Assembly (NCBI GenBank): GCA_000091205.1
Contig: AP006501.2
Strand: one strand, 5' to 3'
DNA: 64,000 nucleotides
Source of the DNA: Cyanidioschyzon merolae
Taxonomy: Eukaryota
In this document: piece after piece, positions 5,257 to 52,030 of the stretch
How the letters are laid out: every line of letters begins with the position of its first letter
Numbering within the stretch: the stretch's first letter is position 1
Position numbers and translations under genes: made by a program
Notes under the pieces: generated by a model
What the model was told of the DNA's origin: nothing
Database searches by the model: none
What the model saw: only the letters and a program-made list of their open reading frames with translations

Positions 5257-6010
5257 ACCCGCCATAACATTGGACATTGTCAGTCATGTACAACGCTGAA
5301 ATGAGGCGCCAGATGTGCATGGAGTCCGCAAACAACATCTGATAGCGCTCGGGACGCTTAACAAGAGTCAGCGACCAGGAAATCATCCTAGTTCTTGATC
5401 ATTTCAAAACATTTGTCAACGAAACCGGGTCCTGCACGCTGGTTATTTTTCGCGCGAGGCTGTACTCGCTCCATGTACTGTTCCGTTGCAGCGTCACGAA
5501 TGCGGAATTTTCACGAGCGAATCTGAACAGTCTCTGTGCGATACACGGCTTTCAGTTAACCAGCGAGCTCTGTCCGTGCACTGCGCTTGCTCTACGCTTC
5601 ACGGACTGCGCAGTCGGCCAACTGCCGCCGGTGTGCGTTCAAACTTTGGGTGAACAGCGCAAGCGACCAGCGTATCAGGCATAGTGCTGAAGTCAAACTG
5701 AACGACGCAACGCTCTGTAACTGAGAATCAGCTCCGCCGATTCAGGGAGATGCACCCAAAGAAACGGTGAAAACAACGTAAAGAATCGAAGGGCTCTCAG
5801 ACCGACGTGGCGTTGGTACGCACTGGCTTGATGAAGCGCTCGTAACAGTAATCGAATGCAGTTACACGAGTGCCAGACTACAAGGAAAACAGTTCCGCTT
5901 AGCTAACTCGGGTGTACGAGCGAAAGCTTGCGCTGTTTCCAACTGTCATCAGCGTCAGCCTTGCGAGCTTTCTCTGCGACCGCTTCCTTTGCCTCTCTTG
6001 TATCTGCGGC

Positions 6011-43290: not shown

Positions 43291-45981
43291 TCAGTCCATG
43301 AGCAGCCGCAAGCCGCTGAGGCCAACCAGCAGCGTACCCCCTTCGTGGAGCAGGACGGCGGCCCAGAGGGGCAGACCACCCGATACCGCCCCGATGGCGG
43401 TACTCACGATCAGAATGAGCGCAATGGCTACATTCTGGGTCATGACGCGCTGCGTCTGGCGGCTCTTCTGCAGATACCATGCGATGCGACGAATGCCTTC
43501 GGGGTAGCCATCGACAAGCACCACGTCGGCAGCGGAAACCGCTGTGGCACTGTGAAAGCCGATCGAAATGCCGGTAGTGGCGAGCGCAAGCGCCGGAGCA
43601 TCATTCATGCCGTCGCCAACCATGACCAGTCGATCTGGTTGTTGTTTCACAAACAGCATTTTGTCTTCGGGACGAAGGGCGTAGCGCACGCAGTCGGCGG
43701 GCACACCAACTGCCTCGGCAATCGCCAGTGCAGTTTCTTTCGAGTCGCCAGTCAGCAGCTGCACGGAATAGCCTTGGGTTCGGAGCTGTGCGATGCACGC
43801 CGGTGCCTCTTCCCGCATCTGGTCCCAGAAAACCAGCATGGCAACGGTGCCGTCTTCGCAGCAAAGCAGGGCCGTGGAACGCCCTAGCGCAGCCTGCTCG
43901 CGCTGATACGCTTCCAGCTTTTGATCAAGCTCCCGAGTAGTGGGCGTCGGGCTCTGGGGTGCGTTTTCGTGCTCCAAGAGCGTTGCGGCAAAGTCGAGAC
44001 GCCCCAAGCGGACGCGGTGACTGAGTGCGTCAGCGCTCGCCGCGTCTAGGTGCTGGTCGCTGCCCCCGCCGTTGCTAGTGACCTCGCTCTCGGAATGCGG
44101 GGCCTGGAAAATGCGTCCTTCCAGACCGGCGCCGGCGCATACCTTCACGTCGTGGACAAGGAGCGGCTCGATGCCAAGTTCAGCGACCGAGGCAGCCACT
44201 GCGCGTCCCAATGGGTGCACCACATGCGCTTCAAGGCCAGCTGCTAAAGCCAGTACCCGCGCTATAGCTGAGGCATGCTCCGCTGGCGGGTGCTCAGCTC
44301 GCAAATCCCAACGATACGGCAGATCCTCTGAAGCAGTAGAAGTATCTGTAGCAGCGTCGCCCGTTGCTGCCATAGACGCAACGGTTACTGCTGATTGCCT
44401 CGGCACCCGAAAGACCTGGATCTGGTGGAGTTCGGGTTCTCCCTTGGTCAGCGTACCGGTCTTATCGAATGCGACTTTGTCACAACGCGCGGAGGCTTCC
44501 AGGGTGCGCGCTCCGCCCTTCACGAGCACACCGCGACGGGCCAAAACGCCCAGCGCCGATGTATACGCAACTGGTGCCCCAATGATCAGCGCACAGGGTG
44601 ATGCCACGACCATAAAGCCAAGGGCGCGTTCGAATGCCTGCCGCTGAGCGCGCCATCGTACCGGTTGTTCCTGGGGCGCCACCGCTCTAACCCCGTGCCC
44701 AGAGTGTTTCGGTGTGCGTACCGGGGTCAGACCCGCTACGATAAAGACAAGCAAAGCACCAGTGACAACAAATCGAGAGTAGAGCTGCCCGAAGCGATCG
44801 ATCCATCGCTCCAGCGTCGGTTTGTTCTGCTGTGCGTTCGTCACCAGACGGGCAATACGCGCCACTGCTGACTCGTGCACTGGTCGCTGCACGCGGAGGT
44901 AAAGCGACCCGTCGACTGTTCGAGCGCCGGCTGCAATGAGTTCCCCGTCGCGAACACGCCGCGGAACGCTCTCTCCTGTGATTGGCTCTAAACTCACATA
45001 GGCATCACCACGAGCAATCTGGCAGTCACAGGGGACCACTTCTCCGGCCTTGACGAGGATCAGGTCGCCTGGAGTCAGCTCTGTTACCGGAACTTGATGA
45101 GCGTCGACGGTATTCAGAGTTCCATTCTCCGCAACTAGTTCGAGCGGGGTGTCCGTATCGCTGGCGCGACGCAGCCGCCACGCGTACTCGGGTACGCTGT
45201 CTCGGAGAGCGTCCAGGTCGCGACGCGCTCGAGCCCGGATGGCACCCTCTGCTGCTCGCGATACCGAGAACAGCACGAATAGAAGGGTTCCTTCCAATAA
45301 ATGACCCACGGCTAACAATAGTAAAGCGGCGAGGTTCATCAACACGTCCACCGATAGAGACGGCTTACTCAACAGCGTCCACAGCATCTCGAGTAGCGAC
45401 GGCAGTCCAGATAAGACAAGACAAGCAAGAACAAAGGCGCGTTGCATGAATATCCAGCTAAAGTAGATAGCAGCGCGCTGGGTTACTCGCGGAAGAGCGT
45501 GCTGAAGCAGGGTCAGTGTGCAAGCGGCGCACCAGAGACCAGCAGACAAGCCTTGCAGCTGGAGCGAGTCCCGCCAGCCAACAAGTCGCTCGAAAGTCGG
45601 CTGCAGCGGTCCAAGAACTCGGAGCAAGCCTGTCGTGCGTGAACCAGCACCAACTGCGTCCTGAGCGCCGCAGCATGGAGCAGCGTAGGCCTGCGCTTCA
45701 GACGAGCGTGGAGACGCGGTTGCGCTTCGCGTGCCACTGCTCTCGAGTGCGTGGCGTTTCTTTGTTGGCTCAGAATCATTGTGACACTGAACAGCGTACC
45801 GAATCGTAACAGCGCCGCGTCGTCTACTCAGCTTCGTGGCTGCGGTTGCGTGCTCGCCGTCAAGTCGCGTACGCCGCTGGTGAAACGGGTGACACCCACG
45901 GAACCTCCTTCGATCGAGTTCCCAGCCGCAATGAAGACGGGATATCGGAACCCATTTCACCTGAAAAGCCCAAGTTGACAT
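43291..45981 (-). CDS. P1B-type heavy-metal-transporting P-type ATPase with an SPC motif (HMA1/CoaT-like, P1B-4 subtype)
   Basis: P-type ATPase motifs DKTGTLT, LTGDSKETALAIAEAVG and VMVGDGMNDAPALA are present. The transmembrane metal motif is SPC (ASPCALII) rather than CPC, with a TGES-type actuator (ITGESVP). The 46044 start is GTG; the first ATG is at 45981. The N-terminus is basic/hydroxylated and transit-peptide-like. Confidence 0.85.
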   Translation of the reverse strand: MSTWAFQVKWVPISRLHCGWELDRRRFRGCHPFHQRRTRLDGEHATAATKLSRRRGAVTIRYAVQCHNDSEPTKKRHALESSGTRSATASPRSSEAQAYAAPCCGAQDAVGAGSRTTGLLRVLGPLQPTFERLVGWRDSLQLQGLSAGLWCAACTLTLLQHALPRVTQRAAIYFSWIFMQRAFVLACLVLSGLPSLLEMLWTLLSKPSLSVDVLMNLAALLLLAVGHLLEGTLLFVLFSVSRAAEGAIRARARRDLDALRDSVPEYAWRLRRASDTDTPLELVAENGTLNTVDAHQVPVTELTPGDLILVKAGEVVPCDCQIARGDAYVSLEPITGESVPRRVRDGELIAAGARTVDGSLYLRVQRPVHESAVARIARLVTNAQQNKPTLERWIDRFGQLYSRFVVTGALLVFIVAGLTPVRTPKHSGHGVRAVAPQEQPVRWRAQRQAFERALGFMVVASPCALIIGAPVAYTSALGVLARRGVLVKGGARTLEASARCDKVAFDKTGTLTKGEPELHQIQVFRVPRQSAVTVASMAATGDAATDTSTASEDLPYRWDLRAEHPPAEHASAIARVLALAAGLEAHVVHPLGRAVAASVAELGIEPLLVHDVKVCAGAGLEGRIFQAPHSESEVTSNGGGSDQHLDAASADALSHRVRLGRLDFAATLLEHENAPQSPTPTTRELDQKLEAYQREQAALGRSTALLCCEDGTVAMLVFWDQMREEAPACIAQLRTQGYSVQLLTGDSKETALAIAEAVGVPADCVRYALRPEDKMLFVKQQPDRLVMVGDGMNDAPALALATTGISIGFHSATAVSAADVVLVDGYPEGIRRIAWYLQKSRQTQRVMTQNVAIALILIVSTAIGAVSGGLPLWAAVLLHEGGTLLVGLSGLRLLMD

Positions 45982-46184
45982 ACTCGATAAAGAGCGTGCC
46001 ACTCGGCAACACACACTCGTTGCCGGGCCCGTGAGGAACAGCACCTTGCCGCACTGTCGCTAGGGATGCAGTTTCTAGATAACGTTTCCAGAGGGCAGCG
46101 ATGAGTCTCCGTGCGCGGATGCGCGTCCTCATCGCTTGAGCATCGTGATCGCCCGCCGTTGTACCACTGGCGATCATCCGCTGC

Positions 46185-47232
46185 GCGTACACGTATACCA
46201 GTGCGTGTCCATGGATGCTTTTCTACATGCATGCCTATACGTGTCCAATGGTATGTATCCATGTCCATGGGTGCTTTTCTACATGCACGCCTTTACGTGT
46301 CCAACGGTATGTGTCCGTGTCAATGGATGCTTTTCTACATGCATGCCTATACGTGTCCAATGGCATGTATCCGTGCCCATAGATGCTTTTCTACATGCAT
46401 GCCTATACGTGTCCAATGGCATGTATCCGTGCCCATGGATGCTTTTCTACATGCATGCCTATACGTGTCCAACGGTATGTGTCCGTGTCCATGGATGCTT
46501 TTCTACATGCATGCCTATACGTGTCCAATGGTATGTATCCGTGTCCATGGATGCTTTTCTACATGCACGCCTATATGTGTCTAATAATATGTGTCCGTGC
46601 CCATGGGTGCTTTTCTACATGCACGCCTATATGTGTCTAATAATATGTGTCCGTGCCCATGGGTGCTTTTCTACATGCATGCCTATACGTGTCCAATGGT
46701 ATGTATCCGTGTCCATGGGTGCTTTTCTACATGCACGCCTTTACGTGTCCAACGGTATGTGTCCGTGTCAATGGATGCTTTTCTACATGCACGCCTATAT
46801 GTGTCTAATAATATGTGTCCGTGCCCATGGGTGCTTTTCTACATGCACGCCTATATGTGTCTAATAATATGTGTCCGTGCCCATGGGTGCTTTTCTACAT
46901 GCATGCCTATACGTGTCCAATGGTATGTATCCGTGTCCATGGGTGCTTTTCTACATGCACGCCTTTACGTGTCCAACGGTATGTGTCCGTGTCAATGGAT
47001 GCTTTTCTACATGCACGCCTATATGTGTCTAATAATATGTGTCCGTGCCCATGGGTGCTTTTCTACATGCACGCCTTTACGTGTCCAATGGTATGTATCC
47101 GTGTCCATGGGTGCTTTTCTACATGCATGCCTATATGTGTCTAATAATATGTGTCCGTGCCCATGGGTGCTTTTCTACATGCATGCCTATACGTGTCTAA
47201 TAATATGTATCCGTGTCCATGGGTGCTTTTCG
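46185..47232. repeat. Minisatellite: 56-bp unit x ~19, each unit containing CCATGG, CATGCATGC (RY-like) and ACGTGT cores
   Basis: Unit CCATGGATGCTTTTCTACATGCATGCCTATACGTGTCCAATGGTATGTATCCGTGT repeated head-to-tail with point variants. The long Cys-rich ORFs across it (46136-47250) are repeat artefacts. Confidence 0.95.
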
Positions 47233-48366
47233 CTCTGGATATCAGAGTAATTTGGATGACAGGGCCGAGCGCTTCGCTCGAGTCCGTCGACGAGTTCCAG
47301 ACGTCCAGCGAGGGTGTGTTCGTTTTTTCAGTACAACGTGCATAAAAGATGAGCAACATGCCGTTTACATAGCGGACGTCCAAGCATCGCCTTCAACAAC
47401 GAGCAGGAAACGGACGAGGGTACCCGCCTTGCCATGCATCAACCGCGCCTGGGGCGATCGCGCGTCTAGTATTGTTACGTTTAGAGTCAACGCGTCGAGG
47501 CAACTCGTCAGTCGCCGCTGCGCATTGGAGTGCTCTCTGTGGCGAGCCCCCGGACTCGCGCAGAAAACCCAAGTTCAGGGCAACAACTCGATTTAGAGTA
47601 TGTAGTAGACCGATGATCGCAAACCTATCAATCTTCTTTGCAAAATCAAATCCGAACGGGAATGACAGAAAGCACCCAATTGGAATCACCCGAGCCATTT
47701 GCAGTACTTGGAGGCGGAAAAGCGCCAGCCGTCACCCATCCCGATGCGTAGCTACGTGTTGCTGGCGAGCTGCCCTGCGACGCAGCTCGCAACGCGTACC
47801 CTGAAACCTTGAACACCCCCGTTGCTTGATCGATGACATGCGGAAGCGTCCGTTCAGTAGATCGATCCGATTTTTCACCGCTTCATCGGCTGGGTTCGCG
47901 CAGCACTAGGGGTGCGCTTCCGTGTATCGATGGTATCCTAAAGAGACTCGGAGAGCAGCGCAACACCATCGCGGTCGATGCTGCCAATGCGATTCACGGG
48001 GATCGCCTGCGGATGCACGCGCCAGTCGGAGATCCCGCCTAGAGACGGAGCGCTGCACATCGCTTCCTCGTCCTGCTCCTCCGATTCAATGTGCGGCTGC
48101 AGGCGCGCCTGCCTTTGAGGTTGTCGCACCCAACGCCTGGCTACGCTAGGCAGAAGCCAAGGCGTCTGTACTATCGTGCAAATCGGCCGCATTCATCAAA
48201 AAAAGGAGGCTGCCTTAGCCGAACACGCAGTGCATGAAGCGCTTCTCCTAGCCGTCGTGCGGGGTACACCATTCGCGAGACTCGTATCGCCCCAGAATCC
48301 TGAGAATAAAGTACCGAAATTTGGTCGGGAGCTCAACATACTAGGTTCAAGACGAGATTTCCAGAT

Positions 48367-51300
48367 CTAGTGCATCGAGCGGCGCTCTGAAGAAAACAGG
48401 CTTGGCGATGCCCCTGGAGATGACGTCTCACGCAGCGTAGGGGCGTTTTCGCGGTCACTGTGCGCCGGACTCGTGGTATCCTGTTCCGCTGCGCTCGGAT
48501 GAAGCTGCCGTACCGCACTGGTGGCGCAGTGAGTTGATGCAACAGAACGCTGGTCGGGCTCATACTCGTAGCCAGCAATATTCCAGCCGAATGTCGCTGC
48601 CGGAGCGTTTGTGAAATTCGGTGCAGCAACACCATCACCAACGCCAACACAATCACCAGCAGCAGGAGTCTCCGTCACCAAATTGGCAGTGGCGCGTATC
48701 GCTGACTCGCGCGGGTAGCGTTCGACATGCTCAGCTGCGAACGCAGGTGGTGCTGCAGTAACCTCAGCAACAGAAGCGGCCTGGTCCACCGGCCGTCGCC
48801 TGGGTCGGCGCACCCGTAGCCACCATATACCAGGGCCGTAGCTCGCTGCAACCCACCAGTGTCGACGCCTGCTCGGGCGCTTACCGGGAGCACACGCTGC
48901 TGTTTGGGATGCGTACAAGTCCTTTGGCGTTTTTGAGAAGAACAATCCCGGGCCATAGGACGCCGCCACAGACCAAGACGGTCGTTCTGGCCTGATCGCA
49001 ACACTGCCATCGACGCGGTTCCTAGCTTCGGAGTCCTGGGGTGTGCGTACGCGCGTTTCACCGTCGCCAGTCGCTCGGGTGTCAAAACGAATAAGAATAC
49101 GAGGCTGTTGCTGTGAGTGAGGTCCCTCGGATACAAACGGCAGCGCCGGTGCCCAGGATGCAACGCGGTGCCTCTTCTGGGCGGCTCGTTGTTGAGAGCG
49201 CAGTTGCCGGGCACGCTCGCGCAGAGCGGCGGCCTCGGTCTCCCGTCGCAAGCGGCGCATAAAGGCATTGTCTCGCATTTCCGGACGACCTAGCATCTCC
49301 GCTTGATTCAGTAGGAAACGCGCCTCGGCGATGACCTCTTCGGGTGCGTAGCCTCTCATTTCCCCGTAAGGTAGCACGAGCAGCTTACTGAGATTCCGGA
49401 AACTGCACGCCTTAGAATTCGGAAAAGATGCACACAGGATACTCACGCGTATGGACAACTCGAATTTGCGTCTAGTGGTGGCGAAATACGGTTCATGGGA
49501 CGGATGCGGTGTAACAAGCTTGTACCACGCCCGTGCCGTTCGTATCCAAATGCATACTTCACCGTAATCGATGCACCATTCGAGAATACGACTAGTTCGA
49601 ATCATCGTTGGTCGGAGCTTGACACTTCCAGGACCAGCGCCCGGGATCAGCAGACCTTCGGCGACGAGCGAATTCGGCGTTTCCAGAGCTCCCGGGCCGC
49701 CGCCAGTGTTGCGTTTCGCGGACGTCTGCTCCAATTCCAGGGCATCCAGACAGGCGTGCTCTCCCGTACACTCGTCCAGGATGCGGAACCAGGTGAGAAG
49801 CCGCTGCGGGAGTGCGCTTTCTGTGTTCGTTGCATCAGCAGCGTTATGATGAGAGCTACTTGCATCAGTAGCCGGCAAGTTCATCTCAGGTGGAATATGC
49901 TCCTCTAGTACCATGGCATCGTCGTTAACGCTGCTCGATGACTTTGTTGCTGCCATGGTTTGCTCCTCTGCTACACCATTTTCACGTTCCTGAAGACGAG
50001 ACGATGTTCGTTCCCTTCGCTGCAGTTGCGCTTCAGCTTCGGCGCGCTCCCGTTCGGCTGCACGAAGCGCTCGTTCGATTTCCGCTCGTTGGCGCTTTGC
50101 CAGACGCTCTATTCGTTCCAGTTCGCGCCGACGTTCCAACTCCTCGCGTCTGCGTTGGCGTTCCAGTTCCTTTGCTTCCTCTTCACGCTGCTTCCGCAGC
50201 TCCTCTTCCCGCTGGCGAGCAAGTTCCAGTTCTTGGACCCGGGAGGATGTCCGTTTTGTGGCAAGCAGCCGCTCGAGACGTTCTCGACGGCGTTGCAAAC
50301 GCTCTAATTTGCGACTGTGCTCTTCCCAGACGGGAAGAAGTTCCTGCTTGAGCCATTGTCTCAAAGCGCGTTCTCTGGAACGGGGTCGAGCATCGTCCAG
50401 CGTCTCGATGAGGTCTCGCAGGGCATCCGGCCCCTGCGCAGCAACGCACCACTCGTAGTGCGGCGAAGGTTTTGCGCCCCTGCGTCGGCCTTTCGTGGAT
50501 TTCAAAGCGCTCGTTTCTGTGTCGTCAAGCAACTCCCTATACAAGCGGCAATTGTCGTCAAAGTACCAATATAGCGCTCCGTTCCTATCGATGCCCACTG
50601 GCAGGATTCGCAGGTCGTCATGGTGTAGTTGCCGCAAATCCTTCAAGTAGCGGTTATCTTCGTTCGGACTACAGAGTACGAACTCGCAGAGCGCGTACAA
50701 AATGAGCAGGCGTTGGCTTGCCCTCAGCTGCAGGAACGCTTCCCAGCCACCGGCCTCGAGCGCATCCATGATAGACGCTGCATCTGCAGACTCAGTGCTG
50801 GTGGAGCGCTCCTCCGGATACAGCCCAAGGTTGATCATTTCCGCCAGATGCTGTTGAAAGAAACGAACGAACTGCGGAAACCATAAAGCATCCGCTCGTT
50901 GGACCCAGTCCGCACGCTGCAGTGCTGCCACTGCGCGACTCCCGTCATGCTCTGTTCTGGTGCCACTGCCAGTGCGATACCCAGCCAGGCTTGCCATTAT
51001 TTCTGCCAAAATGGGCGCATATTGTGGCGTCTCCAGAGCGTGCTCGAGCTCCATGGGCGTCACGTCAGGAATGCCGAGGCGTTTGGAGAAGACTTGCAAT
51101 AGACGCCAGGTCGCCGGCAGCTGCCACATCGCCGAGGGTTCTAACCCTTCTAAACTTCGCTCGTCCAACTCGTGCATAGAAATGTTTTCCAACTTCCGCA
51201 ACCCTGAGGTGTAGATCAGACTCTGCCGCGGTTCTGTCGATATCGAAGCCGACTCTTTGACACGTTTCCGTCGCTGCCCCGGTGACCAGGTCGCTGCCTC

Positions 51301-51618
51301 TTCCGAGTCCTCCTCTGGAGTCGAGACCTCACTCTCTGTCGGTTCCGATGCTTCATCGGAACTTGACGAGCGAGACGTTGCTGGCAGGCGCCAGCGCGCC
51401 CTGCTGCTTACCACTGAACTATGCTCCGAGGAAGATTCCGAACTTGAAGAGGCAGCAGCCTCCTGGTTGGTGCGTCTGGTGCGAGCAGACCTCCGTAGCT
51501 GGCCGTCGACTTTTCGACTCCGCGAGCCATACTGCTCCTCCTGGATATTATCCCCACCTTTGAGCACGCCTGTGATGTTACGTTCGGCTTCTCGTGCCGC
51601 TTTACGGCGCGGACGCAT
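48367..51618 (-). CDS. Hypothetical chromatin-associated-like protein: possible DDT domain plus a long charged coiled coil
   Basis: Start ATG 51618. Segment AMWQLPATWRLLQVFSKRLGIPDVTPMELEHALETP resembles a DDT domain. An E/R-rich coiled coil RRERLERLLATK...ELERRRELERIERLAKRQRAEIERALRAAERERAEAEAQ follows. The 3' ~900 bp of the ORF is low-complexity and may be non-coding. Confidence 0.4.
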   Translation of the reverse strand: MRPRRKAAREAERNITGVLKGGDNIQEEQYGSRSRKVDGQLRRSARTRRTNQEAAASSSSESSSEHSSVVSSRARWRLPATSRSSSSDEASEPTESEVSTPEEDSEEAATWSPGQRRKRVKESASISTEPRQSLIYTSGLRKLENISMHELDERSLEGLEPSAMWQLPATWRLLQVFSKRLGIPDVTPMELEHALETPQYAPILAEIMASLAGYRTGSGTRTEHDGSRAVAALQRADWVQRADALWFPQFVRFFQQHLAEMINLGLYPEERSTSTESADAASIMDALEAGGWEAFLQLRASQRLLILYALCEFVLCSPNEDNRYLKDLRQLHHDDLRILPVGIDRNGALYWYFDDNCRLYRELLDDTETSALKSTKGRRRGAKPSPHYEWCVAAQGPDALRDLIETLDDARPRSRERALRQWLKQELLPVWEEHSRKLERLQRRRERLERLLATKRTSSRVQELELARQREEELRKQREEEAKELERQRRREELERRRELERIERLAKRQRAEIERALRAAERERAEAEAQLQRRERTSSRLQERENGVAEEQTMAATKSSSSVNDDAMVLEEHIPPEMNLPATDASSSHHNAADATNTESALPQRLLTWFRILDECTGEHACLDALELEQTSAKRNTGGGPGALETPNSLVAEGLLIPGAGPGSVKLRPTMIRTSRILEWCIDYGEVCIWIRTARAWYKLVTPHPSHEPYFATTRRKFELSIRVSILCASFPNSKACSFRNLSKLLVLPYGEMRGYAPEEVIAEARFLLNQAEMLGRPEMRDNAFMRRLRRETEAAALRERARQLRSQQRAAQKRHRVASWAPALPFVSEGPHSQQQPRILIRFDTRATGDGETRVRTPQDSEARNRVDGSVAIRPERPSWSVAASYGPGLFFSKTPKDLYASQTAACAPGKRPSRRRHWWVAASYGPGIWWLRVRRPRRRPVDQAASVAEVTAAPPAFAAEHVERYPRESAIRATANLVTETPAAGDCVGVGDGVAAPNFTNAPAATFGWNIAGYEYEPDQRSVASTHCATSAVRQLHPSAAEQDTTSPAHSDRENAPTLRETSSPGASPSLFSSERRSMH

Positions 51619-51747: not shown

Positions 51748-52030
51748 AGGAAGCAGAAGCAGAAGCAGCAGCAGGTTGAGCTAACGTTCATCAAGGCAAC
51801 TACACACTGATCTACCTTTGTTTGATGACTACGGCAGTAGAAATGTCGCCACTAGGAAGCAGTAGCAGGAGGTTGAGCTAACATTCAACAAGGCTACTAC
51901 AAACTGATCTATCTTTTTTAGATGACTACGGCGGCAGACAAGTCTCCACTAGGAAGCAGCAACAGGTCGAGCTAACGCCGATGAAAGCAACTACATGCAA
52001 TACCCTTGATAAGTGACGACTGCAACAGTT
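51748..52030. repeat. ~100-bp tandem repeat x ~2.8
   Basis: Units begin AGGAAGCAG(N)AGCAGG..GAGCTAAC.TTCA.CAAGGC.ACTACA.ACTGATCTA.C at 51748, 51854 and 51951. The repeat lies immediately 5' of the minus-strand gene ending at 51618. Confidence 0.8.

Follow-up and report, generated by a model that had tools for sequence, protein, structure and literature searches.

Upstream of a heavy-metal ATPase gene of Cyanidioschyzon merolae 10D, a 56-bp minisatellite forms what is best read as a hypervariable, single-locus variable-number tandem repeat (VNTR) in a duplication-prone spacer, and not as a conserved cis-regulatory module. We assign this reading a probability of roughly 0.75, a value to be taken with the reservation that it and a selected regulatory role of the array are not strictly exclusive. 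The array is located on chromosome 19 (PMC1955436), within the 64-kb stretch of DNA analyzed here (the window). Three lines of evidence carry the argument: length alleles that differ by whole units, tandem duplications of unrelated sequence in the orthologous spacers of related lineages, and the decay of individual motifs within the unit.

In the TRF analysis, the array has a period of 56 bp with 18.4 copies, 90% matches, and 0% indels (score 1531), and no other tandem repeat in the window comes close to it in strength (Table 1). The units run head to tail, and their length lies within the range of ~10–100 bp by which minisatellites are defined. A 30-nt core of the unit has 18 matches in the 64-kb window when up to three mismatches are allowed, all of them inside the array, against an expectation of 0.00 from shuffled sequences. 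Read in register from 46209, the unit order is E A F G H I J (BCAD)(BCAD) K L M, followed by a partial unit of 15 nt, the repeated four-unit block being the exact 224-bp higher-order repeat. Outside the array, positions 46189–46208 match part of the unit core in inverted orientation (75%). The first-pass annotation had described a regular 56-bp minisatellite directly upstream of a heavy-metal P1B ATPase gene, and both TRF and the identity of the gene bear this out. Some of its details shift: the array begins at 46204 instead of 46185 and contains 18.4 instead of ~19 copies, and where a distance of ~140 bp to the ATPase start region had been given, we find 160 bp to the limit of the ORF at 46044 and 223 bp to the annotated ATG. 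The unit quoted there is a genuine one, present exactly once, at 46489, but two of its positions deviate from the majority consensus.

The gene next to the array is annotated as "probable metal-transporting ATPase" (BAM82913.1). According to Pfam, its product contains the E1-E2_ATPase and Hydrolase domains only, without an N-terminal HMA domain, and its translation includes the SPC motif, which marks the IB-4/HMA1 class, with the C. merolae protein among its members (PMC3922081). Relative to the annotated ATPase ATG, the array spans −223 to −1250 and thus occupies the predicted promoter, in a spacer that holds no other gene. Flanked by the 5′ end of the ATPase gene on one side and the 3′ end of BAM82914 on the other, this spacer is 2,385 bp long and, since the accessions BAM82913 and BAM82914 are consecutive, contains no annotated gene. 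From the distal end of the array to the BAM82914 stop codon there are 1,135 bp. In the BAM82914.1 product, Pfam recognizes a DNMT1-RFD domain and, weakly, WSD. The exact BAM82914 product matched no contig, but its variant products P0162 and P0154 did.

Table 1. Features of the ATPase locus in the window, length alleles of the array, and duplications in orthologous spacers (positions preceded by a minus sign are relative to the ATPase ATG).
Feature	Position	Strand	Details
ORF identical to BAM82912.1	41928..43175		415 aa
HMA1-like P1B-4 metal ATPase, BAM82913.1 / XP_005538949.1	43291..45981	-	ATG at 45981; 896-aa product
Presumed core promoter and 5′UTR	45982..46203	-	222 bp, array to ATPase ATG; promoter function putative
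56-bp x 18.4 minisatellite array, non-coding	46204..47231	.	GC 45.9%; TRF and unit map
Two exact 224-bp higher-order repeats, 4 x 56 each	46601..47048	.	46601–46824 and 46825–47048; unit pattern
Distal spacer	47232..48366	.	GC ~56%; no annotated gene; ORFs without Pfam family; no Rfam match
Three ATCGAT sites, including CATCGATC at 47828	47828..47931	.	C. merolae distal spacer
Upstream neighbor BAM82914.1	48367..51618	-	Annotation: "similar to inner centromere protein"; spacer ends at its stop codon
10D allele (window)			1,032 bp; 18.4 copies
L012 allele			696 bp; 12.4 copies
L023 allele			696 bp; 12.4 copies; different sample, 14 mismatches from L012
L025 allele			472 bp; 8.4 copies; ENA, 63-kb contig
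L011 allele			416 bp; 7.4 copies; 133-kb contig
Duplication in L017 (Cyanidiococcus yangmingshanensis)	−119 to −325		105 x 2.0; 95% match between copies
Duplication in L018 (JGI lineage; ATPase 72% identical to Cyanidiococcus)	−182 to −324		72 x 2.0; 98% match between copies
Duplication and (GT)22 in L019 (Cyanidium caldarium)	−436 to −703		118 x 2.3; 100% match between copies
L020 (closely related to C. caldarium; protein identity to L019 93%)			

The first line of evidence comes from the comparison of array lengths among strains, for which copy number was measured between identical 30-nt anchors on either side of the array. The alleles carry 18.4, 12.4, 8.4, and 7.4 copies, which agrees with the polymorphic VNTR that had been offered as an alternative in the earlier annotation; the shorter ones come from short-read assemblies, in which copy number may be underestimated through assembly collapse. 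All length differences are exact multiples of 56, while the flanks of the alleles are 98.7–99.8% identical. A textbook single-step VNTR change separates the L025 and L011 alleles, the former being the latter with one more unit inserted. Private variants mark the interiors of the alleles, which have their final two distal units in common; copy-number differences at one locus are combined here with interspersed, allele-specific variant units. In other samples, no fewer than 12 additional contigs terminate 40–200 bp within the array, having entered it from one side or the other. Such ends are expected for long alleles, as identical units defeat short reads, and the exact 224-bp higher-order repeats likewise account for the breaks of short-read contigs within the array. 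An apparent 3.4-copy allele of 192 bp (L003) was rejected as a probable assembly collapse, since it consists solely of units known from other alleles.

The second line of evidence is the behavior of the same spacer in related lineages. The gene order of RFD-domain gene, ATPase, and 3-beta-HSD is conserved in four of them (L017 to L020; Table 1), and a conserved AFQV(K/G)W motif at the N terminus served to correct the start codons of their ATPases. In BLAST searches with a word size of 7, no similarity between the C. merolae spacer and its orthologues was found below E = 0.09; as the orthologous spacers are unlike that of C. merolae, the 56-bp unit must have arisen within the C. merolae lineage. 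Three of the four spacers contain tandem duplications of their own, which are mutually unrelated and young, and at each of these 14-kb loci (L017, L018, L019) the duplication upstream of the ATPase is the only long-period repeat. The spacer of the close relative of C. caldarium aligns with that of C. caldarium throughout but contains the 118-bp unit only once; the duplication in C. caldarium is therefore very recent. The related Cyanidium spacers also hold (GT)n and (CA)n tracts. No repeat was found upstream of the ATPase in the distant, non-syntenic homologues L021 and L022, and a further homologue (L024) was left out because it has too little upstream sequence.

Long-period duplications are thus present in three of four orthologous spacers versus two of ~50 other spacers in the same sequences (Fisher p = 0.0016), a value that rests on a small sample, the tandem-repeat baseline per spacer being taken from only ~170 kb, and on a test framed after the first orthologues had been seen. 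Across the family, the 5′ spacer of the ATPase gene appears to be a recurrent hot spot of tandem duplication. Across the repeat units of the four species, no common 6- to 9-mer was found. One 8-mer, CATCGATC, recurs in the orthologous spacers of all related lineages covered here and lies inside the repeat units of L017, L018, and L019. As a motif shared by all repeat units it was rejected, because in C. merolae it lies outside the unit, and the case is marginal at best. With an estimated ~0.05 8-mers expected by chance to be common to four spacers, its sharing among the spacers may serve as a weak lead, but is not a finding.

The third line of evidence lies in the unit itself, which is cryptically simple in composition. 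Runs of 6 nt or more in which purines and pyrimidines alternate cover 49% of the array, compared to 13.6% ± 5% in 1-kb tiles of the window and 10.5% in shuffled units, and the short palindromes of the unit (CATGCATG, CCATGG, and ACGT) can be understood as by-products of this alternating composition. Among the 56 columns of the unit, 14 are variable; 12 of these involve transitions, four of them in a CpG context, and the motif variants in the units are mostly transitions that destroy the motif (ACG to ATG, CACG versus CATG). CATGCATG is present in 9/18 units of the 10D array and replaced by CATGCACG in the remainder, whereas 12/18 units carry ACGTGT and the others ATGTGT; CCATGG occurs 15 times. 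Only the 15-nt block GCTTTTCTACATGCA is invariant among the motifs counted (18/18 units in 10D), but this does not extend to other strains, where 9/12 units (L012) and 5/7 units (L011) contain it. Individual motifs of the unit therefore show no sign of constraint and decay freely by transitions.

These counts contradict the earlier statement that every unit carries CATGCATG and ACGT. They also bear on the analogy with RY-element and ACGT transcription factor sites of plants that had been drawn from it, since the motifs are neither maintained across the units of the array nor conserved in the orthologous promoters of the four related lineages. CATGCATG is absent from the spacers of L017, L019, and L020 and has a single copy in L018, at −177, while ACGTGT occurs once each in the spacers of L019 and L020. 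Being absent from some units, unconstrained, and unconserved, the motifs provide a resemblance of short sequences only.

The VNTR reading entails the following history. Changes in the length of the array occur by whole 56-bp units, and the exact 224-bp repeat shows that multi-unit blocks can be duplicated as well. Replication slippage and/or unequal sister-chromatid exchange would be the probable mechanism, and the alternating purine/pyrimidine composition of the unit probably favors either process. Any influence on transcription would be expected to act through altered spacing of upstream elements (0.4–1.0 kb between alleles) or through altered chromatin. Since the alleles displace any upstream elements by 0.4–1.0 kb relative to the start codon, an effect of the whole array on ATPase transcription is plausible.

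The most serious alternative takes this possibility further and sees the array as a tuning knob, in which array length or the dosage of sites sets the transcription of the HMA1-like ATPase gene. As a corollary, the recurrent duplications would be traces of selection that has acted repeatedly on the expression of metal transporters in acid hot springs rich in metals. This reading is consistent with the position of the array directly upstream of the gene, with copy-number differences among strains, and with the invariance of GCTTTTCTACATGCA throughout the 10D array. It also gains from the independent promoter-proximal duplications in four of five syntenic lineages (p ~0.002) and from precedents in yeast promoter tandem repeats, the human INS VNTR, and human minisatellites associated with expression. 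On the other hand, the repeat units of the four species have no 6- to 9-mer in common, no more than half to two-thirds of the units carry the candidate motifs, which decay by transitions, and GCTTTTCTACATGCA loses its invariance outside 10D. Furthermore, a mutational hot spot accounts for the recurrence equally well. We therefore regard a tuning function as possible but rather unlikely. Its broader version, that duplications in the spacer of this HMA1-like chloroplast ATPase have been kept across the Cyanidiaceae through repeated retuning of expression, strikes us as doubtful; if true, it would be a case of convergent cis-regulatory amplification, seen in C. merolae as strain-level VNTR alleles.

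A different role is suggested by base composition. The array has the lowest GC content of any 1-kb segment in the window, and a preprint (bioRxiv 10.1101/096016, citing Kanesaki 2015) describes the centromeres of C. merolae as single regions of 2–3 kb with 48.4% GC, compared to 55%, and without shared sequence. The array could accordingly be the centromere or a chromosome-maintenance element of chromosome 19, which would keep its syntenic position while being replaced in sequence, and rapid turnover combined with positional conservation would match centromere behavior. However, the whole spacer has a GC content of 51.9%, which rises to 56.4% once the array is excluded, and stretches of 2.4 kb with lower GC exist elsewhere in the window (e.g. 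50.7% from 52401 onward), which makes a centromere unlikely at this site. Moreover, there are alleles with only 0.4–0.7 kb of array, the orthologous spacers measure only 0.6–0.8 kb with a GC content just 3–5 points below the local value, and the prior is ~1 in 384 spacers on chromosome 19. In sum, we consider a centromere very improbable.

Equally, the array might be a transposon-derived or dispersed satellite, one copy among many. Some minisatellites arise inside mobile elements, and nothing beyond this general origin speaks for such a reading here. A scan of JGI metagenome contigs with GCTTTTCTACATGCAYGCCT returned six loci. Three of these (L011, L012, L015) are the array locus itself, with flanks ~99% identical, and the other three are lone 20-mer matches without further similarity, approximately the number expected by chance. 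No second site of the unit was found in the 64-kb window or in same-species metagenome contigs of 30–133 kb, and, at the level of ORFs, a search among 5.8 billion proteins returned only two homologues of the array ORFs, both from the same array in metagenome contigs. The first-pass annotation had named occurrence of the minisatellite at many unrelated sites as the result that would speak against its proposal, but the only real matches elsewhere are the same locus. Terminal inverted repeats flanking the array are also lacking. The array is thus locus-specific and not dispersed, as judged from metagenome contigs and the ORF-level search, and an origin as one of many satellite copies is highly improbable.

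Least credible of all is that the array encodes a product, be it a Cys-rich repeat protein translated from its plus strand, a non-coding RNA, or a cluster of small RNAs. Plus-strand ORFs of 157–242 aa are indeed open across the array, but they follow from the canonical unit having no stop codon in any plus-strand frame; the period of 56 bp is not a multiple of 3, so that the reading frame shifts with each unit and single-unit changes in copy number would shift it again, and TAATAA variants introduce stops in 7/18 units. In favor of a product there are also sub-threshold matches of the array ORFs to the Pfam family Reovirus_L2_7th (25.5 bits, cut-off 27) and of the DNA to a miRNA family (21.6 bits, gathering score 100, E = 0.82), both far below threshold; no Pfam family was found above cut-off for the ORFs in and beside the array, no Rfam match of weight (E up to 1) and no tRNA was detected by the respective scans, and the single-strand DNA folding of the array is not unusual (z = −0.40). 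With no homologues beyond the array itself and no gene annotated there in 10D, the earlier view that the Cys-rich ORFs are artefacts holds.

Regarding the significance of the VNTR, C. merolae has a genome of 16.5 Mb, which is among the most repeat-poor finished eukaryotic genomes, and a hypervariable minisatellite of 1 kb is therefore a rare feature in this organism. The array could serve directly to type strains in environmental populations of Cyanidioschyzon. As C. merolae permits precise promoter replacement via homologous recombination, and duplications are available from sister genera, whether a metal-homeostasis gene is tuned by tandem repeats in its promoter could be tested cleanly at this locus. 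Should the array have no effect on expression, it would be an ordinary neutral VNTR. Its interest lies mainly in the fact that duplications recur across species at the promoter of a metal transporter, in an extremophile that is amenable to genetics. Among the ten best-ranked of 3,227 matches of a literature search that was not restricted to Cyanidioschyzon, none named this alga, and no report on such repeats in C. merolae was found.

Structurally, the array is a VNTR that resembles promoter-proximal minisatellites known from other organisms. The resemblance to plant regulatory sites is limited. The RY element (CATGCATG) is bound by B3-domain factors in plants, and ACGT cores are bZIP sites (ABRE/G-box). 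Some units contain the same 8-mer and an ACGTGTC core, but, in contrast to the plant elements, these are confined to 9/18 and 12/18 units, respectively, and are unconserved in orthologous promoters except for the L018 site at −177. The human INS VNTR, with a unit of 14–15 bp located ~0.6 kb upstream of the insulin gene, is a closer counterpart. It is named in PMC10904573, and PMC8096271 describes human minisatellite VNTRs as associated with expression differences. Like these, the C. merolae array consists of single-locus tandem units upstream of one gene, with whole-unit differences between alleles and interspersed variant units. Unlike the INS VNTR, its unit is longer (56 bp) and its host is a haploid unicellular red alga, and a link between allele length and expression would here be a prediction.

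Unstable promoter repeats of yeast provide a further comparison. Their effect was reportedly demonstrated experimentally by Vinces and colleagues in 2009, and copy number has been proposed to tune transcription via nucleosome occupancy and spacing. C. merolae shares with yeast a compact genome, the location of the repeats within promoters, and rapid changes in copy number between strains, although the yeast repeats mostly have short, AT-rich units, whereas the C. merolae unit has 56 bp and 46% GC, and an effect on expression would be a prediction only. Finally, Hanikenne and colleagues are said to have demonstrated in 2008 that the HMA4 gene of Arabidopsis halleri is triplicated, with altered promoters and a gain in expression. 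What has been duplicated in C. merolae and its relatives is non-coding upstream DNA only, next to the gene of an IB-4 (HMA1) class ATPase; still, both cases combine a P1B ATPase locus with lineage-specific duplications in organisms of metal-rich habitats.

The 56-bp minisatellite upstream of the gene for the HMA1-like metal ATPase BAM82913.1 is a systematic breakpoint in assemblies of environmental Cyanidioschyzon populations. More than 15 metagenome- or SRA-derived contigs of this locus (L001-L010, L027-L033) terminate at the array edge or slightly within it, with flanks that are 98.7-99.8% identical to those of strain 10D. Within the array (window 46204-47231), 12 of the 14 variable unit positions differ by transitions, and four variable positions toggle between CpG and TpG (CACG/CATG, ACGT/ATGT, AACGG/AATGG, and CCGTG/CCATG), a pattern compatible with deamination of methylated cytosines. 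Just beyond its proximal edge lie 20 nt (window 46189-46208, ACACGTATACCAGTGCGTGT) that read as an inverted copy of the unit core ACATGCATGCCTATACGTGT at 75% identity, possibly a relic of the unit's source sequence.

The window contains a second long-period tandem repeat, with a period of 97 bp, upstream of the neighboring gene BAM82914, and its copy number is the same in the environmental contig L012 (7857-8090). Together with the 56-bp array, it places promoter-proximal tandem repeats at two consecutive genes. BAM82914.1 itself matches the Pfam domain DNMT1-RFD (E = 1.8e-11) and, weakly, the DDT-associated WSD domain (below the cut-off) and KIAA2026 helical. These matches suggest a protein of the chromatin-remodelling or replication-foci type, not INCENP.

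Coordinates of the features discussed (window, C. merolae 10D; L017, Cyanidiococcus yangmingshanensis; L018, JGI lineage; L019, Cyanidium caldarium; L020, close relative of L019)
Feature	Position	Remarks
BAM82914.1	window 48367-51618	minus strand; annotated as 'similar to inner centromere protein'
CATCGATC / ATCGAT-core sites	window 47828-47931; L017 5554; L018 5447-5523; L019 5401 and 5519; L020 9226	
97-bp tandem repeat, 2.5 copies matching at 79%	window 51762-51995	~144 bp upstream of BAM82914 ATG (51618, minus-strand gene)
(GT)22 microsatellite	L019 5707-5750	upstream of C. caldarium ATPase
Upstream ATG of ATPase	L017 5752; L018 5725	annotated/called starts at 6001

Alternating purine/pyrimidine simple tracts recur in the ATPase upstream spacer: the (GT)n tract is far shorter in L020 than the (GT)22 of C. 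caldarium (alignment A1, columns 530-575), and a (CA)n-rich tract lies close by in L020 in place of the long (GT)n.

The ATPase models of Cyanidiococcus (P0002, 807 aa) and the JGI lineage (P0003, 797 aa) appear to be truncated at the N-terminus. In-frame upstream ATGs add 83 and 92 codons, respectively, and regain the AFQV(K/G)W motif conserved at the C. merolae ATPase N-terminus; the added codons probably include a transit peptide.

The spacer upstream of the ATPase carries the 8-mer CATCGATC, with an ATCGAT core, in all five lineages. It falls within duplicated units in L017, L018, and L019, and C. merolae has a cluster of three ATCGAT-core sites, CATCGATC among them, within 100 bp. Another divergent promoter in L017 contains three ATCGAT copies inside 90 bp (1427-1517). 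The 8-mer could act as a general element of promoters in these algae.
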